From positions 1 through 13,732 of the forward strand of contig JACPWU010000030.1 of NCBI GenBank assembly GCA_016196885.1: a DNA stretch of 13,732 nucleotides. The letters are read 5' to 3'. Origin of the DNA: Chlamydiota bacterium. Its GTDB lineage: Bacteria; Auribacterota; JACPWU01. The first letter of the stretch is position 1. Every line of letters begins with the position of its first letter. The position numbers and the translations under genes were made by a program. Shown here in pieces: positions 1,495 to 13,732 of this stretch. Below the pieces are notes generated by a model. That model was not told the origin of the DNA and searched no databases. It saw only the letters and a program-made list of their open reading frames with translations.

Positions 1495-1704
1495 TTAAGC
1501 CCTAGGATGTGTTCCAATAAAATCTCTCATAAGGCCATATTCCCACATGGTCTCGACGCTGGCGACAGCGGCCCGCAATTCTACCGCAATCAATGGAATG
1601 CCTGCCAGAGAAATAATGATATCGGCGTTAATCACCAGTCCTTTGTCCAAAACCCGATCCAATAAATCTACGAGCGTCGCTCGACCTTGACGTGTGGGTT
1701 CCAT
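1495..1704 (-). CDS. GvpA-family gas vesicle protein (GvpJ/M/S-like minor paralogue)
   Basis: Core TLVDLLDRVLDKGLVINADIIISLAGIPLIAVELRAAVASVET matches the GvpA/J/M fold signature. ATG at 1704 is preceded by GGAGCGGAG-CAACAG. The upstream in-frame ATG at 1722 (75 aa) has no SD and lies in an AT-rich spacer, so the start is 1704 or 1722. Confidence 0.85.
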   Translation of the reverse strand: MEPTRQGRATLVDLLDRVLDKGLVINADIIISLAGIPLIAVELRAAVASVETMWEYGLMRDFIGTHPRA

Positions 1705-1776
1705 CTGTTGCTCCGCTCCCATTTATAATTAAAAATTAAGGAAAAGTTTATTTATTTTTAATTGATTCATTTGCCC

Positions 1777-2547
1777 TCAGGCAAATGAATAGGGTGGCCA
1801 AGGCCCTGTGAAACGAACGTCAAAACCTTGGATTTTCCCGATCTTTTCCAGTTCTCTCCCGAGAAGCACCACTTCGTCTTTCTCTTGCAGGCAGGAGAGA
1901 TTCATGATCATTTGTTTGGGTGGATTCTCTCGTCTGACTTTTTCGACATGGATTTCTTCAACACAATTGCGGATGCGCTGATAAAAATCCTTAAAATAGA
2001 CATTGGCCGCTTCTTCCAGTCGCTTTTTAATGATTTCAGCAAGTTTTCGTTCCAAAAGATAAGCGACCCCTTTGGGTTTGGACTGGATTTCCTTCTCCAG
2101 ATCCTGAATTTCTTTGTCATTGTGTCTAATTTTGGGAAGAACGATCGTAGGATCCCATATCACCTGTACACCATATTCCGCTTTACTTTTTAAACGCATC
2201 AATTTTCCACGAAGCTCTTCAGATTCTCTTTCCATCCAACCTTTAAGATTTTCACCCGCGGTCTTTCCGTCCATTGGCCGAATCACCATTCCAAAACTAA
2301 ATGGAAGAACAGTCTCATAACGCTCCCAGGCAATATCCACCACACTTTGATGAATCAAGAGCCCATCTGCAAGGACCTTTTGATCTTCAGATTGAATGGA
2401 CTTGGCCTCGCATTCCTCAACAACTGCAATCAGGCCTCGATGCAAAAGGGCCATGACAGGTTGTCCCCCAAGACCCCGAAGTTCCAGAGGTTCTTCCTGA
2501 TTCCCTTGGGCGAGACAATAGATATAAAGACCTTTATCGGTCATCAT
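1777..2547 (-). CDS. GvpF/GvpL family gas vesicle protein (paralogue 4)
   Basis: N-terminus GLYIYCLAQG..., LPFSFGMV, and C-terminal FDVRFTGPWPPYSFA are typical of GvpF/L. The track start at 2559 is a TTG that lies inside the RBS. ATG at 2547 follows GGAGGGAAAA. Confidence 0.85.
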   Translation of the reverse strand: MMTDKGLYIYCLAQGNQEEPLELRGLGGQPVMALLHRGLIAVVEECEAKSIQSEDQKVLADGLLIHQSVVDIAWERYETVLPFSFGMVIRPMDGKTAGENLKGWMERESEELRGKLMRLKSKAEYGVQVIWDPTIVLPKIRHNDKEIQDLEKEIQSKPKGVAYLLERKLAEIIKKRLEEAANVYFKDFYQRIRNCVEEIHVEKVRRENPPKQMIMNLSCLQEKDEVVLLGRELEKIGKIQGFDVRFTGPWPPYSFA

Positions 2548-2565
2548 TTTTCCCTCCAAATCAGA

Positions 2566-2635
2566 TCACTGTGCACGGCCCCATGAATGGGCGGCTACAT
2601 AATGGACGACACCTTTGAGTCAAGTGCATATGCCT
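2566..2635 (+). repeat. Composite palindromic repeat, copy 2. Right half only: H2 hairpin plus right terminal IR.
   Basis: GCCCCATGAATGGGCGGCTACA (2578-2599), then AATGGACGACACCTTTG, then AGTCAAGTGCATATGCCT (2618-2635). It fills the gvpK / gvpF-L gap and overlaps the last codons of gvpK. Confidence 0.8.
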
Positions 2636-2958
2636 TTTTCCTTATTCGTTTGGCGAGATGGAGCAATGCCATAAGGATCCGTTAAGCCTTGAACCATTGA
2701 ATCCACCCAATCATCTAATCCTTCCCGAACAGAACGAACAGCCTCCGTGACCCCCTGCTCTTCTTTCAAATGCTCAATCGCCTTATCCAACTCCATGAGG
2801 GTCACTCCAAGCCGATTGATTTCGTCTTCCGTAAGACTTCCCCCTTCCATTCTTTTAAGGGCTTGAATCCTCAAGGTGTCTCGAATCACCTCCACAATGG
2901 CCAAAACCAGGCCGAAGAGACCCTGTTTTAAATCTTTATCGTTCATTTCAAGTTTCAT
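2620..2958 (-). CDS. gvpK: Gas vesicle protein GvpK
   Basis: GLFGLVLAIVEVIRDTLRIQALKRMEGGSLTEDEINRLGVTLMELDKAIEHLKEE matches the conserved GvpK core. ATG start at 2958. The last four codons and the TGA stop lie inside repeat copy 2. Confidence 0.85.
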   Translation of the reverse strand: MKLEMNDKDLKQGLFGLVLAIVEVIRDTLRIQALKRMEGGSLTEDEINRLGVTLMELDKAIEHLKEEQGVTEAVRSVREGLDDWVDSMVQGLTDPYGIAPSRQTNKEKGICT

Positions 2959-2970
2959 GATGAGGTTGAC

Positions 2971-3153
2971 TTACCTCCCTTTCTTTCCAAACCTTCGATT
3001 CATTTCCTCTCGAATTTTTTTTATTCGACCCCCAAATATTTTGCTATTCTGGGCTTTTTGAAAGAAGGAACCAAAACCCGGAATCACCTTGCCAACCTTC
3101 TTCAAAATTTCATCCGCGACATCTTCTTTGTCTTTCTTATTCTCTTCAGACAT
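2971..3153 (-). CDS. Hypothetical small basic protein (60 aa) in the gvp operon
   Basis: ATG at 3153 is preceded by GGAGG with a 5-nt spacer. The track start at 3225 is a TTG whose extension would read through the left arm of repeat copy 3. The product MSEENKKDKEDV...PGFGSFFQK...GKKGR is charged with a Gly/Phe patch. I recognise no family. Confidence 0.5.
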   Translation of the reverse strand: MSEENKKDKEDVADEILKKVGKVIPGFGSFFQKAQNSKIFGGRIKKIREEMNRRFGKKGR

Positions 3154-3187
3154 GAATACCTCCTTTTTCAGCCTATGTGTTCCTATA

Positions 3188-3334
3188 AGGCTATGCAGTT
3201 GACTCAAGTACCTTTGGTCCGTCAAGTGTAGCCGCCCGATTTATCGGGCAAATCCATGCAAGGGGCAAGGCGCATTGCCCCATGAATGGGGCGACTACAA
3301 ATGAACGACATCTTTAAGTCAAGTGCATATGCCT
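3188..3334 (+). repeat. Composite palindromic repeat, copy 3 (full element, 147 bp)
   Basis: Left IR AGGCTATGCAGTTGACT (3188-3204). H1 TGTAGCCGCCCGATTTATCGGGC (3227-3249). Spacer AAATCCATGCAAGGGGCAAGGCGCATT. H2 GCCCCATGAATGGGGCGACTACA (3277-3299). Right IR AGTCAAGTGCATATGCCT (3317-3334). Confidence 0.85.
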
Positions 3335-3356
3335 ATATTCCTAACCTCCGACACTT

Positions 3357-3587
3357 CTATACTTTTTGTTCTGGAACCGGATGAGCTACCCTCATATCCG
3401 AGGGAAAGGCCAAACCCCATTTTGCCGCTGTTTCAAACGAGGCCAAGGCGGCCCGAATCTTAATGGAAAGAAGTTCCACATCGCAAAGTAAAATCACAAT
3501 ATCCGCGTTGATCACAAGCCCCTTATCGAGGATGCGCTCCACCACATCAGCCAATGAGTCTCCCTTTGTCGCGTGAGTGAATGGCAT
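3357..3587 (-). CDS. GvpA-family gas vesicle protein (GvpJ/M/S-like minor paralogue)
   Basis: SLADVVERILDKGLVINADIVILLCDVELLSIKIRAALASFET matches the GvpA-family core. ATG at 3587 immediately follows the TAA of the upstream gene (GAGGAGGCATAAATG), which suggests translational coupling. Confidence 0.85.
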   Translation of the reverse strand: MPFTHATKGDSLADVVERILDKGLVINADIVILLCDVELLSIKIRAALASFETAAKWGLAFPSDMRVAHPVPEQKV

Positions 3588-3839
3588 TTATGCCTCCTCA
3601 GGTCCAAAACCGGTGACATTAAACCCTTCATCCAGCGAAATCACATAACGGTTTTTATCAAAAATGGTCGGGTGACCCAATTTTTTCAGGTACTCGTTTT
3701 CTTCGGTCACTTCAATCGTTCCTTCCCATCCCATATCCGACTTCGCCAATTTCAAAACACGAATGGAGGCCGGATCCTTACCCAGCTCTTCCTGAACGAA
3801 TCCCGTGACCTTTACCTTCGCCTCATGAATATCAGACAT
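3588..3839 (-). CDS. gvpO: GvpO/GvpR-like gas vesicle protein
   Basis: Small acidic protein. MGWEGTIEVTEENEY...RYVISLDEGFNVTGF resembles the GvpO-family core (GW-x-V-x-VEV..., ...Y-x-V-x-LD). RBS AAGGAGGG lies 4 nt upstream of the ATG at 3839. Assigned from memory of the family signature. Confidence 0.6.
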   Translation of the reverse strand: MSDIHEAKVKVTGFVQEELGKDPASIRVLKLAKSDMGWEGTIEVTEENEYLKKLGHPTIFDKNRYVISLDEGFNVTGFGPEEA

Positions 3840-3854
3840 GAAACCCTCCTTCTC

Positions 3855-4112
3855 TTACAATTCTTCATCATTTGACTCTTCCCCCTCTTCTTCGACGGGT
3901 TCCTGACTCCTTTTGTCTATCTCATCCAGAATCCCCAAAATCTCCTTTTCCTTTAAATTATATTCTTCCTCCCCTATTTCACCCATATCCAATTTTGATT
4001 GGAGCAAAAGAAGACGCTCCATCACTTTCTCTCGGCTGCCGTATAATTCATCCTCGGCCATATCCTTAATCTTCTTGCCAAGCCAAATCGCCAAATCATC
4101 AAAGAAAAACAT
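3855..4112 (-). CDS. gvpG: Gas vesicle protein GvpG
   Basis: MFFFDDLAIWLGKKIKDMAEDELY...LLLLQSKLDMGEIGEEEYNLKEKEIL is the typical GvpG pattern (hydrophobic N-terminus, ELY, GEI-x-EEEY), followed by an acidic tail. Confidence 0.85.
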   Translation of the reverse strand: MFFFDDLAIWLGKKIKDMAEDELYGSREKVMERLLLLQSKLDMGEIGEEEYNLKEKEILGILDEIDKRSQEPVEEEGEESNDEEL

Positions 4113-4116
4113 GATT

Positions 4117-4926
4117 TTAAGACCTTTCGATCAGTTCCGCCTTCGACTGGAATTTTCCGCCTTCCTCCTCCAACTGAATGACAATCTCAACAAAGTTAAA
4201 GGGCGGAATAGGGCCCACATACTTAAACTGAATCTGGGAACCGTACCTGCCTTCTAGGTTGTTCACGACCTCATCAAAAGAGGCCTGTTTTTCATCCTCT
4301 ACAAGGAATGCAACATTCATAATATTGACATCCCCCAAAACATTTTGTTTTTTATGTTGAACAGCCCAAGGGGCAAGTTCATGGATCAGCGTTTCAGCCA
4401 TTTGAATGTTCTTCTCCTCCAAGGCCTCTTTCACCACATGCCCCACATCAATCAGAGCGGTGTGCCTTTCCTGTAAAGCCATTTTCATAATCTTCTCTTT
4501 AGCGGCAATCACCTTTTCGTTTTCCTGACTTAATTTTGAGAAAACCTCCTCCAGATTTTTCCACCTCGCCCTGAGGCCCAGCTCACTCTTACCTTGAATC
4601 TTTGCAAAGGTCTCCTGAAACTCCCTCACCTTCTCCTGACGCTTTAAAACCTGACGGACAATCTGATCCTTCGTCTCAGCCAGGGTGCAAAATTTCACGG
4701 GGAGCACCGGCTGAATTTGCATCACCTTTTCATTGACCAACTGATGAGCCATTAAAAAATCACGCGTCAGGTGATATTTCTTCATGGGCTCTTCTGAGAC
4801 CACAGCCGCAAAATCCCCATCGCTTACAACCTCAATCGCACTCGTGCCGTGAATCCCCTGAGCTTCAATCTTCAGAGGCGCTTTATTTTCAATCACGCAA
4901 TAGACCCAAAATCCCATCTTTTCCAT
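4117..4926 (-). CDS. GvpF/GvpL family gas vesicle protein (paralogue 3)
   Basis: MEKMGFWVYCVIEN..., LPVKFCTL, and C-terminal IQFKYVGPIPPFNFV. The track start at 4950 is a GTG. ATG at 4926 is preceded by AAGGAG with an 8-nt spacer. Confidence 0.85.
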   Translation of the reverse strand: MEKMGFWVYCVIENKAPLKIEAQGIHGTSAIEVVSDGDFAAVVSEEPMKKYHLTRDFLMAHQLVNEKVMQIQPVLPVKFCTLAETKDQIVRQVLKRQEKVREFQETFAKIQGKSELGLRARWKNLEEVFSKLSQENEKVIAAKEKIMKMALQERHTALIDVGHVVKEALEEKNIQMAETLIHELAPWAVQHKKQNVLGDVNIMNVAFLVEDEKQASFDEVVNNLEGRYGSQIQFKYVGPIPPFNFVEIVIQLEEEGGKFQSKAELIERS

Positions 4927-4950
4927 AACATCAGCTCCTTCATTAACCAC

Positions 4951-5058
4951 TGCCCCATAAATGAGGCGACTACATCACGATTCACTACCTGCCCCATGAA
5001 TGGGGCGACTACAATGGCCTGCTACTTGTAGTCGCCCGATTTATCGGGCAATCCATGC
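4951..5058 (+). repeat. Composite palindromic repeat, copy 4 (rearranged order H2, H2, H1)
   Basis: GCCCCATAAATGAGGCGACTACA (4952-4974), GCCCCATGAATGGGGCGACTACA (4991-5013), TGTAGTCGCCCGATTTATCGGGC (5027-5049), followed by AATCCATGC as in the other copies. There are no terminal IRs. Confidence 0.8.
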
Positions 5059-5065
5059 TACGCAG

Positions 5066-5812
5066 CTATTCATTCCAATGTAGTTGCAGGGTTACAAAAC
5101 TAAAGGGGGCCATGGGCCCCACCGATTTGACGTCCAGCCTGTCCCCAAATTTCTCAGCCAATTTTTCAGCGGATTGATCAAATTCCTTGAGCCAATCCTT
5201 ATCAATTAAAAAGGCTTCATGGATGACAACCTCATCGGCCCCAGACTCCATCGTTTTAGAGCCCTTTGCCAATTTTTTAAACGGCACGAGATAGCCTTCA
5301 CCCTCTGCCGCCTTTTTTTTCTCCAACGCAGCCGCTACCAGTTCCCCCGCGTGAATGAGGTCTCTTTGAGTTTGAGGGGGTTTAGCGGATTTCAAGTCTC
5401 GAATCTTTCGATTCTCCTGGGCAATTTCTTGATAAATTTTCTTCATGTCTTTCCAACGAACCTTGATGTCCATTTCAACTTTTCCATCCATATCTCTCAA
5501 AAGATCCGTCAACTCCTTCGAATTCCTTTCCAAAAATGAAATAATTTCGTCTGAGGTATCGGCCACCGTGCAGAAACGCATCGGAAGAATATTATATAAC
5601 TCCATCACCTTCTCGATCACCTTCATGTGGGCGGTCATATTTTCTCTGGAAAGGACGTAATGATCCATCGAGGCATTGCTCACCACGGCCGCTAGGCCCT
5701 CAGAACCAAGGGTCATCACCTCGTCCGATTGCCCCCCAATCCCAATGGGGCCAAAATTCTCAGCCCCATTGCTGGAAATAATCCCGTAAATATATTTTCC
5801 CACATGCTTCAT
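5066..5812 (-). CDS. GvpF/GvpL family gas vesicle protein (paralogue 2)
   Basis: MKHVGKYIYGIISSNGAENFGPIG..., LPMRFCTV, and C-terminal LDVKSVGPMAPFSFV. ATG at 5812. Confidence 0.85.
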   Translation of the reverse strand: MKHVGKYIYGIISSNGAENFGPIGIGGQSDEVMTLGSEGLAAVVSNASMDHYVLSRENMTAHMKVIEKVMELYNILPMRFCTVADTSDEIISFLERNSKELTDLLRDMDGKVEMDIKVRWKDMKKIYQEIAQENRKIRDLKSAKPPQTQRDLIHAGELVAAALEKKKAAEGEGYLVPFKKLAKGSKTMESGADEVVIHEAFLIDKDWLKEFDQSAEKLAEKFGDRLDVKSVGPMAPFSFVTLQLHWNE

Positions 5813-5815
5813 AAC

Positions 5816-6820
5816 CTAACCCTTTCCATTGATTTGAAACAAGTCCACCTTCCAGGGCTGACGACCTCCCTGACAGTAATCTAGCAGCAGGTCATACGCC
5901 TCGTGAATTTTTTGGAATTCCTGATCGTCCAATTCGGGATGAATGTCCGGATGGCATTTCCGTGATTTCTCTTTATAGGCGTGTTTCACCGTTTCCAAAT
6001 TTTGATCGCCTTCCAAACCTAACACCTCCTTCGCCCGGCGGATCTCTCGCTCCTCAAATTCCTTGACCAAAATCATAGAAAAACTATAAAGCGGCAGAGG
6101 TCCAATGCAACGAAAATTAAATTTTCCCCCACATATCCGATCCAGATGCTCGACGGTCTTAAAAAACGAATCCTCCTGGCCATTTTTGAGCAAAAAGGAG
6201 GCGTTTAAAACCATGTCGTCATTCATCGTGTCATGTAAGGCGCTCTCTTGACTCACTTTTTTTAAGGAAAACAGAATCTCGTCAGCCCATTGATTCGCAT
6301 AGTCCTTTAATTTTGCCGCTAGGCTCATCCCCAAGGCAATCTTTTCATCCTTTTCTCTCTCAGGCGAAAATGTTTGAATCGCTTTTATCCGACTTTCAAT
6401 TTCTGGATCGCCTTCAGCCATTCCTTTTAGAACCTCCCTGGAATCCCAAGTGACCACGACATCCGTCTCGAAACAATCCTTCATCTTTGAAATCCACTCC
6501 TCAAGACGCCTCTCGTTTTGTAAAAGGACCGCACGTACTTCTTCCTGATCCCTTAAGACAGTCCCAAATTTGCACGGGAGAATAAATTGGCTCTTCATAA
6601 TCATCTCCAGCGTCTCCTGATGCGTTAATAAGGTCTTGACCAATCTTTCTTTGCTCAAAAGTCCGAAATCTTCCTCAGGCGCGGGTCCAATCACGGCGGC
6701 AATATTTCGACTGGGCAGAGCTTCAACCTTTCCCCTTCCAAAGTCCGCTGTTTCAAAACCGATTGCGCCAAAGTCTTTTAACGCGTTCGATTCAACAATC
6801 CCGTAAAGATAAGAACGCAT
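5816..6820 (-). CDS. GvpF/GvpL-family domain fused to a C-terminal DnaJ-type J-domain
   Basis: Residues 1-250 look like GvpF/L (SYLYGIVESNALKDFGAIG, LPCKFGTV, FNFRCIGPLPLYSF). Residues ~258-316 read AKEVLGLEGDQNLETVKHAYKEKSRKCHPDIHPELDDQEFQKIHEAYDLLLDY, a J-domain with HPD encoded at 5945-5953 (CAT CCG GAC on the minus strand). Confidence 0.85.
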   Translation of the reverse strand: MRSYLYGIVESNALKDFGAIGFETADFGRGKVEALPSRNIAAVIGPAPEEDFGLLSKERLVKTLLTHQETLEMIMKSQFILPCKFGTVLRDQEEVRAVLLQNERRLEEWISKMKDCFETDVVVTWDSREVLKGMAEGDPEIESRIKAIQTFSPEREKDEKIALGMSLAAKLKDYANQWADEILFSLKKVSQESALHDTMNDDMVLNASFLLKNGQEDSFFKTVEHLDRICGGKFNFRCIGPLPLYSFSMILVKEFEEREIRRAKEVLGLEGDQNLETVKHAYKEKSRKCHPDIHPELDDQEFQKIHEAYDLLLDYCQGGRQPWKVDLFQINGKG

Positions 6821-6831
6821 ATCTTAACCTC

Positions 6832-9012
6832 TCACTTTTTAGCCTTCCGAGCGATTTGAATCGCCTCTTGGAAATGTTCTTTCCTCACAACAAATTTCTC
6901 CACCAATCCATTGGACTTATCTTGATGCTCTCCAATAAATTCCCTAATCGCCAAGGTCACCGCCTGCCTGCAAAGGGCTGCAATATCGGCCCCGCTGGCC
7001 CCTTCTGTTTCTCGAGCCAGCGCTTCTTTGTCCACCTTTTTTTCGACTGGGGTTCCCTTCAAATGAATCTGAAATATCCCCTCTCGTGCTTTAAGATCCG
7101 GAGGACCCAGCATAATAATATGATCAAATCGGCCCGGCCGGATCAGGGCCGGGTCAATCAAATCCACTCGATTGGTCGCACCCAAGATAATCACGCCTCG
7201 AAGCTCCTCCGTCCCATCTAACTCTGTTAAAAATTGACTAAGGGTCCGACCCATAACCCCGGAATCACCATCGCCTGAGCCCCTTCTCGGAGCCATGGAA
7301 TCCATCTCATCAAAAAATAGAACACAGGGAGCCGCGGACCTTGCCTTTTTAAAAATCTCCCGAACGCCTTTTTCAGTCTCCCCCACATATTTCGAAACCA
7401 ATTCAGGGCCTTTAATCGAAATGAAATTGACCTCGGACTCCGTTGCCAACGCCTTTGCGAGTAAAGTTTTCCCCATTCCTGGAGCACCTATCAGAAGAAC
7501 CCCTTTATTGGGTTTGAGATTTGCCTTCTCGAAAACCTTCGCATAGTGAAGGGGCCACTCTGCTCCCTCGATGAGCAATTTTTTCACAGCTTCAAGTCCC
7601 CCAATATCCGACCAGCGCACATGGGGAGTCTCTAGTGAGACCTCACGAATGGCGGAGGGCTCCACCTCATTCAATGCCTGTGTAAAATGTTCTTGTGTCA
7701 CTTCCAGGGACTCGATCACTTCAAGGGGAAGGTCTTCGATGCGCATTCCTCTTTTTTCCAAAACCTGTCTCAGGCAGCTCATCGCGGCCTCCCTGGCCAA
7801 TGCCTCAACATCAGCCCCCACATAGCCATGGGTGATATCCGCTATCCTCTCCAAACTCACATCTTCGGCCAGGGGCATTCCACGCGTATGGATTTCAAGT
7901 ATTTTAAGCCGTCCATTGCGATCCGGAATTCCAATCGTAATCTCGCGATCAAACCGGCCGGGCCGCCTCAAAGCAGGATCCAAAAGATCCGGCATATTGG
8001 TCGCCCCAATCACAATCAGCTCGCCCCGCGATTTTAATCCATCCAAAAGAGACAAAAGCGTGGCGACAATTCTTTTCTCTACCTCCCCCTGGACATTCGC
8101 CCTCTTGGGGGCCACTGAATCAATTTCATCAATGAAGATAATGGCTGGGGCATGGAGCCTCGCCTCTTCAAAAATGGATCGTAAATGACTTTCGGATTCG
8201 CCGTAAAATTTATGCACGATCTCAGGGCCATTGATCGTGTAGAAATTGGCCTCCGATTCATGAGCCACCGCGCGGGCAATCAAGGTCTTTCCTGTCCCTG
8301 GAGGTCCATAGAGAAGAACCCCCTTCGGGGGATCAATTCCCAATCGCTCAAACACCTCAGGATGTTTAAGGGGCAGTTCCACCATCTCCCGAATTCTCTG
8401 AATCTCCCTGGTCAAGCCACCAATGTCCTCGTAAGAAACACCGGGACGAGTCTTTTCTTCACCCTTTACAGCCTCCCCTTCAATTTTGATTTGCGTTGAA
8501 GATGTGATGAGAAGAGGACCCTCGGGCGAAGTATTCACCACTTCAAAATCTCGAGTCCTCGATCCAAAAAGAGTCGCGCGGACCCGATCCCCTTTAAGGA
8601 CAGGCAACCCCTCCAGGAGACGGCCCACATAAGGATCAGACGAAGGCAGGGCACCTTGTTTTGAGGAACTCAGCGTTGTTTTGAGCCACAAGGTTCTCGC
8701 GGGCTCAGCAGTTGTAGCAAAAACTAAAACCTTCCCATCTAAGCCAATTTTTGCATTTTCGCGAGTGACTCCATCAATCTGAATGTAATGCTTCCCTCGA
8801 TACTCCTCGTAGGTCGGAGCCAGCTTCGCCACCGTCTTATGCTTGCCTTCAATAAATATAATATCCCCGACATGGCAGCCCAATTTTTCCATATCGGACG
8901 GATCCAAGCGGGCAATCCCACGCCCTACATCCCTCACCAAAGCTTCTGCAACACGGAAAGTGAGGGAATCAGACTTAGAATCAGCTTGTTCCTTTTTTAC
9001 AGTACTGGCCAT
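6832..9012 (-). CDS. Cdc48/VAT/p97-type AAA+ ATPase (N domain plus D1 and D2 rings)
   Basis: N domain: RVAEALVRDVGRGIARLDPSDMEKLGCHVGDIIFIEGK. D1: Walker A GPPGTGKT (8284-8307), Walker B IIFIDEID, pore loop KFYGESE, PALRRPGRFDREI. D2: Walker A GAPGMGKT (7465-7488), Walker B VLFFDEMD, pore loop SKYVGETE, PALIRPGRFDHII. RBS GAGGTG lies 5 nt before the ATG at 9012. Confidence 0.92.
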   Translation of the reverse strand: MASTVKKEQADSKSDSLTFRVAEALVRDVGRGIARLDPSDMEKLGCHVGDIIFIEGKHKTVAKLAPTYEEYRGKHYIQIDGVTRENAKIGLDGKVLVFATTAEPARTLWLKTTLSSSKQGALPSSDPYVGRLLEGLPVLKGDRVRATLFGSRTRDFEVVNTSPEGPLLITSSTQIKIEGEAVKGEEKTRPGVSYEDIGGLTREIQRIREMVELPLKHPEVFERLGIDPPKGVLLYGPPGTGKTLIARAVAHESEANFYTINGPEIVHKFYGESESHLRSIFEEARLHAPAIIFIDEIDSVAPKRANVQGEVEKRIVATLLSLLDGLKSRGELIVIGATNMPDLLDPALRRPGRFDREITIGIPDRNGRLKILEIHTRGMPLAEDVSLERIADITHGYVGADVEALAREAAMSCLRQVLEKRGMRIEDLPLEVIESLEVTQEHFTQALNEVEPSAIREVSLETPHVRWSDIGGLEAVKKLLIEGAEWPLHYAKVFEKANLKPNKGVLLIGAPGMGKTLLAKALATESEVNFISIKGPELVSKYVGETEKGVREIFKKARSAAPCVLFFDEMDSMAPRRGSGDGDSGVMGRTLSQFLTELDGTEELRGVIILGATNRVDLIDPALIRPGRFDHIIMLGPPDLKAREGIFQIHLKGTPVEKKVDKEALARETEGASGADIAALCRQAVTLAIREFIGEHQDKSNGLVEKFVVRKEHFQEAIQIARKAKK

Positions 9013-9108
9013 CTTTCACCTCGTTTCCAAAGCCCAATCGTACGCTCGAAACCCCAACACCCAAGGGAACCGCGCAAAAGCCGGGGTTTGGAAAAGAATA
9101 TATTCATT

Positions 9109-9227
9109 AGCATATGTATTTGACTCTAAAGCGTAGCCGCCCGATTCATCGGGCAATCCCCCATGCACGGCCCCATGAATGGGGCGACTACAAATGGACG
9201 ACATTTTTAGGTCAAATACATGAGCCT
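9109..9227 (+). repeat. Composite palindromic repeat, copy 5 (full element, 119 bp)
   Basis: Left IR AGCATATGTATTTGACT (9109-9125). H1 GCGTAGCCGCCCGATTCATCGGGC (9131-9154). H2 GCCCCATGAATGGGGCGACTACA (9170-9192). Right IR AGGTCAAATACATGAGCCT (9209-9227). Confidence 0.85.
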
Positions 9228-9233
9228 GTAGAT

Positions 9234-9788
9234 CTATTTTTCTTTCTTCCTGAGCTTCAACTCCAACATCCCATTTTTATAACTGACTTGGGCACCCGCT
9301 TCCTCCACGGGTGTTTTAAGCAAAATCTCTTTGCTGTACTTACGCTTTCCCGTCGTGGATAAATTCACCACATCCCCATGAATCTCGTAATGAATCTCAC
9401 TCTCGCTTACCCCTGGCAGCTCGGAAACAATTTGCACTGTAGTACTATCCTCAAAAACATCCACAATGGGCTCTCGGGTCTCTTCCACGACCGGACCTTT
9501 GGGGGTTTTTTTAATATTGCCAAAGGCCTCAACGACAGGTTTTGTCTTTCCACCGGCCCCTGCCATGGTCCGAACGGTGAAGCCAAACACCCCTTTCATA
9601 TCCTTCTGGCCAGGCACTGTAAATTCACCCTCCTTTTGAATCACGCCTCCCTCTTCCTTAATCTTGTCAGCAAGTTCAATTAAATTCCCCAATCCTTGAA
9701 ACAACCCGCCAAAAAGGCCCCCCGTCTTAAACTCAAAGGGAAATTTAACCTCTTCACCCGACTCATCCTTTTTCTTTTCTTTTTTCAT
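9234..9788 (-). CDS. Hsp20/alpha-crystallin family small heat-shock protein
   Basis: Alpha-crystallin domain: VDVFEDSTTVQIVSELPGVSESEIHYEIHGDVVNLS...AQVSYKNGMLELKLRKK (the A-x-x-x-NG-x-L-x-x-x-L-x-K signature). N-terminal Lys/Glu-rich and Gly/Phe-rich extension (GGLFGGLFQGLG). The track start at 9797 is a GTG. ATG at 9788 follows GGAGGTGGAGGAT. Confidence 0.85.
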   Translation of the reverse strand: MKKEKKKDESGEEVKFPFEFKTGGLFGGLFQGLGNLIELADKIKEEGGVIQKEGEFTVPGQKDMKGVFGFTVRTMAGAGGKTKPVVEAFGNIKKTPKGPVVEETREPIVDVFEDSTTVQIVSELPGVSESEIHYEIHGDVVNLSTTGKRKYSKEILLKTPVEEAGAQVSYKNGMLELKLRKKEK

Positions 9789-9830
9789 ATCCTCCACCTC
9801 CAGTCTCTCTCTTTCAGTGAATTAAAATTT

Positions 9831-10132
9831 AGGCATACGTACTTGCCCCACGCATCCTCGTAGCGTAGCCGCCCGATTTATCCCCCCACCCAATCCAGCT
9901 GTTATCTTTAGCACGTTCGTAAGCTTATGACCCGTGCATTGATCGCTAAACAATCCCGCCACCTTCGATAGATTGGGTGGGGGGATGAATCGGGCAAATC
10001 CATGCAAGGGGCACGGCCCCATAAATGGGGCGACTACATCCGTCAAGCGTAGTCGCCCGATTTATCGGGCAACATCCATGCACGGCCCCATAAATGGGGC
10101 GACTACAAATGGACTCAGTGCGTAAGCCCATA
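9831..10132 (+). repeat. Composite palindromic repeat, copy 6. Two tandem H1-H2 units inside one pair of degenerate terminal IRs; the first H1 is expanded into a 25-bp-arm hairpin.
   Basis: Left IR AGGCATACGTACTTGCCC (9831-9848). Expanded H1 arms GCCCGATTTATCCCCCCACCCAATC (9871-9895) and GATTGGGTGGGGGGATGAATCGGGC (9971-9995). H2 (10015-10038). H1 GCGTAGTCGCCCGATTTATCGGGC (10047-10070). H2 (10085-10107). Degenerate right IR TCAGTGCGTAAGCC (~10115-10128). Confidence 0.8.
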
Positions 10133-10135
10133 AAA

Positions 10136-10468
10136 TTAATACGCCAGACTCATCTTCTTCACCCGACTGCCACTTTCTCGCAATTCTTTTTGCTCAGCTT
10201 TTTTGTGAGGCCGCCTGCCTGAAAGCTTTCGATACTGACTCTCAGTCCCCCGAATATCCGCTTCAATCCCTTTCATAATCTCCTTGGCTTCGTGCAACTG
10301 ATGCGTCAAGGTGTTGATTTTGCTGAGCAAACTCTGACGCCGGACCGTGAGAATATAAAGCCGATTGACCTGTTGAACCGTTCCGGTATTCTTAAGAGTA
10401 ACGGTCCGGATATCTGAAGAGCCTCGACTGGTTGAAGATCTCCTCAATAATTTCATTTGCACTGGCAC
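10136..10468 (-). CDS. Hypothetical coiled-coil protein directly downstream of gvpN (position of gvpV in Serratia/Anabaena-type clusters)
   Basis: Intact ORF 18 nt downstream of gvpN, with AAGGAGGG upstream. The start is ambiguous: GTG 10468, GTG 10462 or ATG 10456. It has a basic N-terminus and a helical segment LLSKINTLTHQLHEAKEIMKGIEADIRG. The GvpV assignment rests on synteny only, not on recognised sequence. Confidence 0.45.
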   Translation of the reverse strand: MPVQMKLLRRSSTSRGSSDIRTVTLKNTGTVQQVNRLYILTVRRQSLLSKINTLTHQLHEAKEIMKGIEADIRGTESQYRKLSGRRPHKKAEQKELRESGSRVKKMSLAY

Positions 10469-10486
10469 GGCCCTCCTTTTTTTCTT

Positions 10487-11440
10487 TTAAGGGTCTCTTT
10501 TCGGTTTCTTCCCATTCAAACCAAATTGATGAATGGCTCTCTCCACCACTTCCTTGACCTTGGCTGAAGTTGTCTTACTTCCGATTCTCGAAGTTTCTGA
10601 ACAAAGAACATCCAGACAAATCTGTTTAAAAAGAGAATGGTCCGCACCCAGACAAACCCCTTTTCCATAATCCTGAACGGTTTTGGCAATCATGATACAG
10701 CCCCGAATGGTGGGCGCAAATTCATACTGGCCATGCTCCCTCAAATAGCGAACGATCTTCACAATCTTTAAGGCGACTTCCCTGGAAAGTCCTGATCTTC
10801 TTGCAGTAATCGCGCATTCTGTCTCCTCATCAAAGGGCTCCAGATCCAGTGTCACCATCCGATCCCGAAGCGCATCTTGAGAGCGATGAACGCCGGCGTA
10901 TTCCTCCGGATTCGAAGTAAAAATAGCCCGAAAATTGGGATGAACCTTGATACAACTCTCTCCATCGTTTCTACCCCCTCCGGGAAGATCCAGAATTCCC
11001 TCCTGAAGAACCGAAAGAAGAATATTATTGGCCTCAGGCCTTGAACGGGTAAATTCGTCATAAATCAGCGTATAACCATTTTCCACAGCGACCGTCAAAC
11101 GGTTATCCACCCATCGCTTAGAAGAGTCTTCTTCAACCTTCAAAACAGAAGCAATAAAATTATCTCGAAGTTTGCTCACATGATAACCCGTCTGAGCCCC
11201 CACCAATTCGTCTGTGGTCAGTTGTTCATCTCCATGGATCATAATGACGGGCCTTTCTAAGAGCTCGGCAACACGCAGGGCCGATGTCGTTTTCCCTGTC
11301 CCCGAAATCCCTCTAAAATGGACAGGAAAACCCGCATTCAAATAATGGAGGGCCCTCCCTTGAATTCCTTTAACGAAGGGCGTCTCTACAAAATCCGCCC
11401 CCGCCTTCGGTTGTAAAATTGTAATCTCACTGGTTTCCAT
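10487..11440 (-). CDS. gvpN: Gas vesicle AAA+ ATPase GvpN
   Basis: FVETPFVKGIQGRALHYLNAGFPVHFRGISGTGKTT (Walker A encoded at 11288-11311), Walker B TLIYDEFTRS, and FRAIFTSNPEEYAGVHRSQDALRDR. Length (317 aa) and motifs are typical of GvpN. Confidence 0.9.
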   Translation of the reverse strand: METSEITILQPKAGADFVETPFVKGIQGRALHYLNAGFPVHFRGISGTGKTTSALRVAELLERPVIMIHGDEQLTTDELVGAQTGYHVSKLRDNFIASVLKVEEDSSKRWVDNRLTVAVENGYTLIYDEFTRSRPEANNILLSVLQEGILDLPGGGRNDGESCIKVHPNFRAIFTSNPEEYAGVHRSQDALRDRMVTLDLEPFDEETECAITARRSGLSREVALKIVKIVRYLREHGQYEFAPTIRGCIMIAKTVQDYGKGVCLGADHSLFKQICLDVLCSETSRIGSKTTSAKVKEVVERAIHQFGLNGKKPKRDP

Positions 11441-11515
11441 TTTAAACCTTTAGGGGAGATCAGGCCCTCCGACATCGCGTCTGGGGGCGTGATCTTCCGC
11501 GAAATTTTTTGATCC

Positions 11516-11917
11516 TTAATGCTTCTTGGCTGTCTTTGGCGTAGCCTTCTGGGCCATATTTCTCACACTCGTATCGAAGTGCCGCCTCTTCTCGGCCATC
11601 TCCTTTTCAACCTTCTGAAAGGCCTGATGACCCGCTTTGCATTCCTGATGAAACGCCTTGCTCTCCTTATGGAATCCCTGACACAACTTACCCACACTGT
11701 CGGTCAGGTTACCCACGAAAGTTCCTAAATCCGCATGCAACCCTCTTGCCATTGCCTTGCGATCTTTCCTCGTATGATCTAGAAACTTATGGGCATCATT
11801 CGTTATTCGATTAACCTCGGCGACATTATGCCCAAGGAAATTAATACGGTCATTGAACGAAGAGAGGATGCTTCCTCCCAGATTGGCCATACCTGTTGCA
11901 AATCCCGTGAATGCCAT
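11516..11917 (-). CDS. Hypothetical alpha-helical His/Lys-rich protein between the gvpC-position ORF and gvpN
   Basis: AAGGAG lies 9 nt upstream of the ATG at 11917; the ATG at 11926 abuts the SD with no spacer. It contains three consecutive heptads, GFHKESK / AFHQECK / AGHQAFQ. I recognise no family. Confidence 0.5.
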   Translation of the reverse strand: MAFTGFATGMANLGGSILSSFNDRINFLGHNVAEVNRITNDAHKFLDHTRKDRKAMARGLHADLGTFVGNLTDSVGKLCQGFHKESKAFHQECKAGHQAFQKVEKEMAEKRRHFDTSVRNMAQKATPKTAKKH

Positions 11918-11938
11918 GATATTCATCTCCTTTCCTAA

Positions 11939-12562
11939 TCAGGATAAACTTCGTATCCTGTCACCATCTCTTTCCCTGATGTCTTCTCGCCTTCCGCCGG
12001 TACAAGTCAAATATTCATCGGCCAAAGCGGCGGTCTCGAGCCTAAGCTTAGAACCTAAATCATCAAGGGTCTTTTTGAATTCCCTTAAAGTAAGCTCATC
12101 CTTTTTCTGTAAAAGATACTGCATCTTCTCCCCAATCAGGGCTTGTTCTTCTTGAAAACACCTTAAACTAACCCTCGTATCGGCAATGGAACCCTGAATC
12201 CCCTTCTCCAAAGAAGGGACATCTAAAAAGATCCCCTCCTCGACCCCTCTCTTCAACTGAGCCGCCAACTCTTTTTGCCTCTTTAGAAAAGAATGCAAAG
12301 TCAGCCTAATCTCTTTCTCTCTAGCCCGCTGATAAGCTAAAAGAGGCATCGTGAGCACATCAAAATCCTTTTTCCTAAACGACTCAACTTTGGACAATGT
12401 TTCCCTTAAATTTTCCTGAACCATTTGATTGGCAACACGACATTGGTCGAGCATTTCCATACTTTTTTCGATAATCTCCTGTACGGCACAAATGTTCTCA
12501 TCGTAACCCCTGATCGCGTCTGCTGTAATCCTCTTAATCTCCTCCAACTCTGGTGCTCTCAT
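11939..12562 (-). CDS. Hypothetical alpha-helical protein immediately downstream of gvpA (gvpC position)
   Basis: The track start at 12616 is a GTG. ATG at 12562 is preceded by GGAGGAG with a 5-nt spacer (207 aa). The protein is charged and helical, with a weak recurring motif: ESFRKKD (60-66), HSFLKRQ (90-96), REFKKTL (160-166). LTLHSF and LTLREF lie 70 residues apart. Confidence 0.5.
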   Translation of the reverse strand: MRAPELEEIKRITADAIRGYDENICAVQEIIEKSMEMLDQCRVANQMVQENLRETLSKVESFRKKDFDVLTMPLLAYQRAREKEIRLTLHSFLKRQKELAAQLKRGVEEGIFLDVPSLEKGIQGSIADTRVSLRCFQEEQALIGEKMQYLLQKKDELTLREFKKTLDDLGSKLRLETAALADEYLTCTGGRREDIRERDGDRIRSLS

Positions 12563-12665
12563 GAAAACTCCTCCACTTTTCTTTGGAAAAGCTTGGTTTG
12601 GCAAAGTCAAGCTCACCTGAAATCATCCGCTAAACTCGTGTCTGAGGTCGGCTCGACAAACCATT

Positions 12666-12684
12666 TCCCTCGTCTCCCGAGGGA
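12666..12684 (-). terminator. Putative stem-loop attenuator just downstream of gvpA
   Basis: On the sense strand, TCCCTCG-GGAGA-CGAGGGA (7-bp GC-rich stem, 5-nt loop) begins 10 nt after the gvpA stop. It is followed by AAATGGTTTG, so there is no clean U-tract. A partial terminator after gvpA is a common arrangement, but this one is weak. Confidence 0.3.
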
Positions 12685-12694
12685 TTCCTTTTCC

Positions 12695-12910
12695 CTACGC
12701 AGGCTGAGCCGCCGTCTGTGTAAGACCGATCGCTTCAGCATACTTAAGATAGGTCTCGACACCCGCGCATACGACACGGGCTTCCACGCTCAGGAACTCA
12801 ATTCCCACCAACGAGACCCTGGCCCATGCATCGATCACGATTCCCTTATCCAGAATCCGATCGACAACCTCTGCTAATGAAGAACTCGCCATTGATTTTT
12901 GAACTGCCAT
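12695..12910 (-). CDS. gvpA: Major gas vesicle structural protein GvpA
   Basis: [71 protein letters not shown] is nearly canonical GvpA over its whole 71-aa length. ATG at 12910 is preceded by AAGGAAGGTG. The track start at 12958 is a TTG extension that would overlap the predicted transcription start. Confidence 0.95.
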
Positions 12911-12961
12911 TTGACACCTTCCTTTCTTCTTTTGACCTCTTCCAAGCGTCGGAAGCAATAA

Positions 12962-12977
12962 AGCAATATGCGTACCA
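12962..12977 (-). promoter_or_regulatory. Sigma-54 (RpoN) -24/-12 promoter upstream of gvpA
   Basis: The minus strand reads TGGTACG-CATA-TTGCT against the consensus TGGCACG-N4-TTGCW, matching 11 of 12 specified positions with exact GG/GC spacing. The GC of the -12 element is 53 nt upstream of the gvpA ATG, which implies a leader of about 40 nt. Confidence 0.6.
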
Positions 12978-13043
12978 AAAATTTAGATGTCATCGCAAAG
13001 GCACTAAGCACGTGATGATCTCACTATGGCAATAGTAAACAAC

Positions 13044-13162
13044 AGGCATATGCACTTGACTTTTTGTAGTCGCCCGATTTATCGGGCTATCAACGGATTG
13101 CCCCATGAATGGGGCGACTACACTTCACGGATCAAGGTACTTAAAGTCAAGTGCATGTGCCT
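13044..13162 (+). repeat. Composite palindromic repeat, copy 7 (full element, 119 bp; the cleanest copy)
   Basis: Left IR AGGCATATGCACTTGACT (13044-13061). H1 TGTAGTCGCCCGATTTATCGGGC (13065-13087). Spacer TATCAACGGATT. H2 GCCCCATGAATGGGGCGACTACA (13100-13122). Right IR AGTCAAGTGCATGTGCCT (13145-13162). Confidence 0.9.
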
Positions 13163-13300
13163 TATAAGCAAAACAGGGTTTTCAGAGATTTTAGAACTGG
13201 AAAAATCGGCAAAGGATTCCCTCATTCAGGAATTAAATCCTGATTTCTGGGTATAAAAGCGTAGGGGTATTTTGTGGGTTTAGTTCACGCGGGATTTAGA

Positions 13301-13732
13301 TTATTGTTGACCCTCCCACATGACTTTAAGCAGAAAGATCGTATCTTTTCTCAAATTGGCTTTAGCCCACACCTTCTGTTTTTCATCCAGCAGTTCACCC
13401 ATGCCGGAGAGGATGTGCCTGTCCCCCATTTTTTCCAAAAGGTCGATACATTTCTGCAAAAAATTCTTGAATGACATGCCAACTCTGGTTTCGACAATCC
13501 CTTTGTTGATGGGCCAATTTTTCTCCAAAAAATGCCAAGTGTCATAAATGTCGCGATTCGTTTTACCCATTCGTTCAACCATCGCCACCAGCTTGTGCGC
13601 CACCATGTCCTCCCGTGTCATAACCTTCATGGAAATACCCAGATAGGCCTTCACTTCATACCTTGATCCGAATTCCCTTCGGTTGATTTCCACCTTGATA
13701 TTCTGAGCACCCAGGACTTTATTATCATAGGA
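13301..13732 (-). CDS. AbiEii/AbiGii-family nucleotidyltransferase toxin, C-terminal part (5' end lies beyond the window)
   Basis: The frame stays open to the window edge: ...SYDNKVLGAQNIKVEINRREFGS.... EDMVAHKLVAMVERMGKTNRDIYDTWHFL resembles the conserved AbiEii (type IV TA nucleotidyltransferase) region. The M at 13693 in the track is an internal GTG (Val). Confidence 0.55.
   Translation of the reverse strand, partial: SYDNKVLGAQNIKVEINRREFGSRYEVKAYLGISMKVMTREDMVAHKLVAMVERMGKTNRDIYDTWHFLEKNWPINKGIVETRVGMSFKNFLQKCIDLLEKMGDRHILSGMGELLDEKQKVWAKANLRKDTIFLLKVMWEGQQ

Follow-up and report, generated by a model that had tools for sequence, protein, structure and literature searches.

Sigma-54 control over gas-vesicle formation is described for Serratia sp. 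ATCC 39006, in which 5'-RACE placed the transcription start of gvpA1 downstream of a consensus sigma-54 site and in which transcription of gvpA1 depends on the NtrC-like protein GvrA (PMC4982088). A transposon mutant of the same strain in rpoN forms no gas vesicles and shows reduced transcription of gvpA1-gvpY (PMC11778176). The Serratia precedent of GvrA and RpoN, invoked in a sequence-only reading that preceded this analysis, is therefore real (PMC4982088; PMC11778176).

Like gvpA1 of Serratia, the gas-vesicle cluster described here carries a -24/-12 site directly upstream of its first gvpA, at the head of a long gvp operon. The cluster lies in a window of 13,732 nt, the whole stretch of DNA analysed, and its source genome (hereafter G000) comprises 2.23 Mb in an assembly that is 94% complete. 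As the sequence-only reading proposed, this motif is very probably a sigma-54-dependent promoter of gvpA, a view supported by its rank within the genome, by its recurrence before gvpA in relatives and other phyla, and by activator genes linked to gvpA in relatives.

A predicted sigma-54 promoter ahead of the gas-vesicle cluster

The gvp genes in the window are all intact. The first part of the cluster consists of gvpA, two unassigned open reading frames (ORFs), gvpN, small ORFs, an sHsp-like gene and a Cdc48-like AAA+ gene; the remainder encodes GvpF-DnaJ, three GvpF/L proteins, GvpG, a GvpJ/M-like protein, GvpK and a further GvpA-family protein. The co-directional run, previously put at roughly 11.5 kb, extends from 12910 to 1495 entirely on the minus strand. 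The features of the cluster and of the region preceding gvpA are as follows.

1495..12910, minus strand: co-directional gvp cluster, an 11.4-kb run
12695..12910, minus strand: gvpA, encoding the major gas-vesicle shell protein of 71 aa (Pfam Gas_vesicle, E = 1.6e-15)
12922-12915, minus strand: Shine-Dalgarno sequence GGAAGGTG, 4 nt before the gvpA ATG
12911..12951, minus strand: predicted 5' UTR of ~41 nt, holding the Shine-Dalgarno sequence and a direct repeat
12950..12952, minus strand: predicted transcription start, near 12951, from general sigma-54 geometry
12953..12960, minus strand: second tandem copy of the -12 box (TATTGCTT TATTGCTT, the pair spanning 12953-12968)
12962..12977, minus strand: predicted sigma-54 promoter core TGGTACG-CATA-TTGCT (TGGTACGCATATTGCT), from pattern match and genome matrix

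Re-reading of the coordinates confirmed the motif at 12977..12962 of the minus strand, with one mismatch and exact spacing, and also its distance of 53 nt from the gvpA ATG (12910), counted from the -12 C; the gap between motif and ATG is 51 nt. The GG of the -24 element (12976-12975) and the GC of the -12 element (12964-12963) are exactly 10 nt apart, and the minus-strand context of the motif reads ...ctaaattttTGGTACGCATATTGCTttattgcttccgacgcttggaagaggtcaaaagaagaaaggaaggtgtcaaATG. Relative to TGGCACG-N4-TTGCW the single mismatch is a T for C beside the GG, which counts against a sigma-54 reading; 11 of the 12 specified positions of the sigma-54 consensus TGGCAC-N5-TTGCW are matched. The site is intergenic and points at gvpA, its start lying at a typical distance of 67 nt before the ATG.

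Sigma-54 promoters generally initiate transcription some 11-13 nt past the -12 C, and from this geometry a start near 12951 is predicted. The second copy of the -12 box is probably non-functional, because it is degenerate in a sister genome (TATTACTT). Within the predicted gvpA 5' UTR we observed a direct repeat (GGAAGAGGTCAAA / GGAAGGTGTCAAA). The gvpA leader showed no significant fold (z = -1.35), and an Rfam search of the leader region returned no credible match; a mir-458 match, which falls on a repeat hairpin farther upstream and far below threshold, was rejected. On the other side of gvpA, 11 nt past its stop codon, a GC-rich 7-bp stem-loop without a T tail occupies positions 12666-12684 of the window, and may set the ratio of gvpA to downstream-gene expression, either as an attenuator or by stabilising the RNA.

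Rarity and placement of the site

For matches with at most one mismatch to the sigma-54 pattern, the expectation is 0.07 per window, and two such matches never occurred together in 200 shuffles. Allowing up to two mismatches gave 2 matches against 1.46 expected per window, which is chance level. The sequence-only reading had found no comparable match before another gene of the window; it missed a second one-mismatch match, yet this match lies inside a gene, scores low and is not conserved.

11736..11751, minus strand: second one-mismatch match TGGCAAGAGGGTTGCA, inside a 136-aa ORF

We rejected TGGCAAGAGGGTTGCA as an internal promoter, given its intragenic position, its score of 10.7 bits versus 18.5 for the gvpA site, and the change of its GC to GT (...GTTGTA) in G001, a genome from the same family as G000 and a different genus; the match is judged to be due to chance. 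No other site in the window reaches 11 bits on the genome matrix.

Across G000, 10 sites have at most one mismatch with both GG and GC intact, close to the ~9 estimated by chance from base composition, so that their total is unremarkable; their placement is not. By crude gene calls, 4 of the 10 lie ahead of a gene that runs in the same direction, and two more, scored by these calls as intragenic, directly precede a ribosome-binding site and ATG. Six upstream and co-oriented sites thus compare with ~0.5 expected, an estimate from ~9 chance sites and the 5.7% of positions that qualify.

Scoring with a sigma-54 matrix, the check suggested at the outset, sharpened this picture. A matrix trained on 10 other G000 sites, with the gvpA site left out and neutral spacer columns, gives the gvpA site 18.5 bits, which places it 8th among the 4.46 million positions of the genome. 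Other top-ranking sites precede, judging by the sequences alone, a PII/GlnB gene, a type IV pilin-like gene, dnaK and genes for small secreted peptides, and the pilin-like gene adjoins an activator gene, directly downstream. PII/glnB and pilin genes are classic sigma-54 targets, and the top sites therefore point to a working sigma-54 regulon with the consensus TGGCAY-N5-TTGCT. The TGGTAC variant of the gvpA site occurs at two other strong sites of the genome.

Two groups of these genes deserve a separate description. At C63:29777, C8:2471, C42:45713 and C1:24688 the G000 contigs encode four small secreted peptides (65-111 aa) with a high content of Tyr, His and Gly; each gene is preceded by a strong -24/-12 site, at a distance of 31-37 nt from its start codon, and the peptides look like a family under sigma-54 control. 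The dnaK gene is preceded by TGGCATATATATTGCT (C44:21368-21383, 64 nt before the ATG), which suggests that this Hsp70 gene is under sigma-54 control in G000; the gvp cluster for its part carries a J-domain GvpF.

Recurrence before gvpA within and beyond the phylum

Our sample of the phylum comprised 79 genomes, of which 11 carry gvpA. G001 has the identical 16-mer at the same distance from gvpA; the 16-mer is also unchanged in GCA_016196915.1, and substitutions occur in its flanks. Between G000 and G001 the 33-nt block containing the motif has 0 substitutions, compared with 5 in the preceding 30 nt and 2 in the following 9 nt; as the intergenic region is ~95% identical between the two, this conservation lends only mild support. 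A -24/-12-like site was found within 1.5 kb upstream of gvpA in 10/10 of the other gvpA-bearing genomes, and beyond G001 the upstream sequences of these relatives are otherwise unrelated to that of G000. The sites, with their positions relative to gvpA, include the following.

-100, G004: TGGCATTCTTGTTGCT
-177, G068: TGGCACCTTTATTGCT
-314, G022: TGGCATGATTATTGCT
-637, G045: TGGCACGGTTATTGCT
Upstream of gvpA, G059, G048 and the genomes of family f3: weaker -24/-12 sites
Also, at -49 and about -96, in the two cluster types that proved closest in a protein search: TGGAACATAAATTGCA and CGGCACGCAACCTGCT, respectively

Three loci of family f3 (L006, L008 and L010) share a conserved TGGCAYGAAWYTCGS element about 101-102 nt before gvpA; its -24 half is perfect, its -12 half reads TCGG or TCGC where TTGC is expected, and a conserved leader follows it. 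This may be an atypical sigma-54 promoter or an element of another kind.

The same signature recurs outside the phylum, in a comparison set of 80 gvpA loci scored with a cut-off of at least 12 bits within 250 nt upstream. Sense-strand sites precede gvpA at 17 of 61 non-cyanobacterial loci, compared with 0.27 expected from the same-locus background, and at this cut-off the antisense strand of these loci yielded none. All 18 cyanobacterial gvpA loci lack such a site, and cyanobacteria are not known to have sigma-54. The sites in other phyla mostly lie 59-131 nt before the ATG, a range into which the 67 nt of the G000 site falls. Among loci that have a linked activator and no strong matrix match, 7/8 show GG-N10-GC 65-102 nt upstream.

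These data bear on whether the motif is a chance match, in which case gvpA would owe its transcription either to a promoter of the sigma-70 type, such as ATGACA-17-CATATT (12993..12965), or to read-through from the AbiEii toxin gene upstream; we consider this alternative quite unlikely. The sigma-70-like sequence matches at 9 of 12 positions and overlaps the sigma-54 site, but the sigma-70 scan returned 2 sites against 1.0 expected, no better than chance. AbiEii is on the same strand as gvpA, but a repeat hairpin lies between the two. A chance origin is further disfavoured by the rarity of the sigma-54 match and by the recurrence of such sites in unrelated sequence before gvpA in many lineages and never in cyanobacteria.

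A further point in favour of that alternative, counted against the sigma-54 reading, is that rpoN was not found in the 94%-complete G000 assembly, not even as fragments (PF04552, PF04963 and TIGR02395; tblastn with the G001 protein). The gene is present in 30/30 relatives searched. In G001 the sequence corresponding to the final kilobase of G000 contig C4 (47289-48229) stops just short of rpoN, and the next syntenic block after the gene (G001:C21) starts at the beginning of G000 contig C63. Most likely, rpoN falls in an assembly gap between the end of C4 and the start of C63, since all 30 relatives have the gene and the seven sigma-54 activators of G000, described below, would be useless without it.

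A probable gvp-linked activator and its putative sensor kinase

The window contains no sigma-54 activator gene, which bears out the earlier observation that no enhancer-binding ATPase is encoded there; the sole Sigma54_activat matches, in the Cdc48-like protein, are weak P-loop matches and were discarded. The genome-wide search proposed for rpoN and activator genes succeeded for the latter only: seven G000 proteins exceed the curated cut-off for PF00158. One of them is encoded next to a histidine kinase.

C28:1738-3021 (G000): REC-AAA+ NtrC-type activator, GAFTGA present, Sigma54_activat 226.7 bits
C28:3167-4330 (G000): PAS-HisKA-HATPase histidine kinase, adjoining the C28 activator

In 7/10 gvpA-bearing relatives, gvpA is preceded by a co-oriented activator gene (Sigma54_activat) at a distance of 1-7 kb, and many loci of other phyla have the same upstream, co-oriented arrangement. 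In a maximum-likelihood tree, computed without Serratia GvrA, all gvp-linked activators fall into one clade with 99/98 support, whose members come from Pseudomonadota, Thermodesulfobacteriota, Myxococcota, Lentisphaerota, Acidobacteriota and the phylum of G000. This clade takes in the C28 activator and its G001 orthologue, and leaves out the six other activators of G000. No orthologue of the C28-type activator was detected in G002 and G003, genomes of the same family that have no gvp genes. The activator near the start of contig C39, considered as a neighbour of the window, groups with that of C43 outside the gvp-linked clade and was rejected.

The position of the C28 pair can be approached through synteny. 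The sister strain GCA_016196915.1 encodes, on a longer contig, an orthologue of the C28 kinase (87% identity) 3.6-4.7 kb upstream of gvpA. The gene order there is kinase, 246-aa gene, REC gene, AbiEi, AbiEii, gvpA, and the window ends inside the same AbiEii gene; beyond AbiEii, the sister strain has AbiEi and then a divergent operon of the REC, 246-aa and PAS-kinase genes. The G000 assembly has none of the genes expected to bridge C28 and the window, as would be the case if they had fallen in a gap. The C28 kinase and activator probably lie ~5 kb upstream of gvpA, beyond the end of the window. Counted against this placement is that the adjacency derives from another strain, whose own activator is elsewhere, on a different contig from gvp. 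The sequence-only reading had called for a distal regulator of the NtrC family: the family stands, with an activator in the gvp-linked clade, while the distance probably shrinks to ~5 kb.

Identity between the two genera provides an independent view of this linkage. The gvp cluster (window 2637-13732 versus G001:C62) is 85-98% identical at the nucleotide level and the activator/kinase region (G000 C28 versus G001:C21) 87-91%, against 66-76% for ordinary genes of the same two genomes. Both stretches seem to belong to a single island shared not long ago, and the pattern suggests that a gas-vesicle island was recently exchanged horizontally between the two genera. The contigs of G000 and G001 break at an identical point inside AbiEii.

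Instead of the C28 pair, a truly distal regulator, one of the six remaining G000 activators, could act on the promoter. That G000 encodes seven activators, that the assembly does not physically link C28 to the window, and that activator and gvp occupy different contigs in the sister strain all speak for this possibility, which we nevertheless regard as unlikely: only the C28 type among the G000 activators belongs to the gvp-linked clade, it is missing from gvp-less family members, its partner kinase is near gvp in the sister strain, and its region shares with the gvp cluster an identity between the genera well above background.

The region upstream of the promoter

Between the promoter and the contig end, the window holds a truncated toxin gene, a repeat and two candidate activator binding sites.

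13044..13162, no strand assigned: hairpin/MITE-like repeat of 119 nt, 67 nt upstream of the -24 element
about 13190-13210: GATTTT-N9-AAAATC, putative activator binding site together with TCAGGATTTAATTCCTGA
13226..13243, no strand assigned: palindrome TCAGGATTTAATTCCTGA, putative activator binding site
13301..13732, minus strand: AbiEii toxin gene, 3' part, cut by the contig end

The 119-nt repeat is absent from the same spot in G001 and GCA_016196915.1 and is therefore a recent insertion; it displaces the upstream intergenic DNA ~126 bp farther from the promoter, and its terminal sequence (..CAAGTGCATATGCC) recurs on many G000 contigs. The candidate activator sites consequently lie at -140 and -104 relative to the promoter in G001 and at -266 and -230 in G000. 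The two genomes are too similar here for footprinting of these palindromes, and a search for a common enhancer motif among the relatives found none. A protein search for close relatives gave four usable contigs, and two metagenome scans for more close relatives to use in footprinting returned none. Three other lineages, at loci L023 (G022), L024 (G059) and L020 (G048), have three to four TGTCC(C/T) direct repeats ~130-170 nt upstream of their predicted promoters; these repeats are absent from G000 and represent candidate sites for the gvp-linked activators of those lineages.

The C28 activator as assembled has no HTH_8 DNA-binding domain and ends in an 18-nt poly-G run, which we count against our reading. 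This poly-G/C run (C28:1745-1762) replaces ~140 nt that encode HTH_8 in G001, and is followed by an AbiE cassette. It may reflect a fault of assembly or sequencing, or the gene may truly be truncated.

A truncated activator would fit a promoter that is a true sigma-54 site by descent and has fallen silent in G000, its activator having lost the DNA-binding domain that the G001 orthologue retains, and the repeat, inserted only in G000, separating it from its enhancer. We hold this to be very unlikely. The poly-G run, the longest homopolymer in the G000 assembly, looks artefactual; an extra distance of ~120 bp is tolerated by DNA looping; and no gvp gene has decayed. Activators that lack a DNA-binding domain can, moreover, work from solution, as FlgR and CtcC do.

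A proposed switch for buoyancy

An active sigma-54 promoter, our preferred reading, would drive gvpA and, at a minimum, the genes that head the gas-vesicle cluster. Sigma-54 RNA polymerase would bind the GG at -24 and the GC at -12 as a closed complex, and transcription would begin near 12951 only upon ATP hydrolysis by an NtrC-type activator, most likely the REC-AAA+ protein of C28 (1738-3021). This activator would receive its phosphoryl group from the PAS histidine kinase encoded next to it, and buoyancy would be switched by whatever that kinase senses. Sigma-54 promoters are silent until an activator fires, and a sigma-54 promoter at gvpA would make buoyancy an all-or-none response to a sensed signal, probably received through the PAS kinase.

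Such a tight switch was known from one enterobacterium, and our survey suggests that gas-vesicle clusters of many phyla generally share it. We give an even chance to the broader proposition that sigma-54, together with one monophyletic family of NtrC-type activators, is the commonest form of regulation of gas-vesicle operons outside cyanobacteria, present in at least seven phyla and moving horizontally with gvp; a sensor kinase often accompanies the activator in this proposed design. The breadth across phyla, in both -24/-12 sites and a single activator clade, appears to be new, as the literature searched describes the design only for Serratia. For the transfer of gvp clusters as acoustic reporters, this would mean that a cluster may stay silent without its own activator and the sigma-54 of the host.

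Comparison with known systems

The Serratia promoter is backed by a mapped start and by genetics, with an NtrC-family protein established as activator of the gvp locus, whereas that of G000 is predicted from sequence. The two loci also differ in layout. In Serratia, gvrA heads a second operon inside the cluster; the G000 activator is outside the window, probably divergent and accompanied by a PAS kinase, and, unlike in Serratia, an AbiE toxin-antitoxin cassette would separate it from gvpA.

Set beside canonical sigma-54 promoters such as those of glnA, nifH and pilin genes, the G000 site shares the invariant GG and GC, 10 nt apart, and T-rich sequence upstream, and is likewise intergenic, about 50 nt before the start codon. 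It departs from the canonical TGGCACG-N4-TTGCW in the T after GG, a TGGTAC variant that is also carried by the Klebsiella nifH promoter.

The G000 activator resembles the gvp-linked activators of other phyla in its architecture of REC, Sigma54_activat and lid, to which HTH_8 may be added. In those phyla the activator gene lies within 1-8 kb of gvpA, with a -24/-12 site before gvpA, and at most of the other loci it is co-oriented 5-7.5 kb upstream of gvpA. The lineage of G000 is set apart from these loci by rearrangement around toxin-antitoxin cassettes and repeats.
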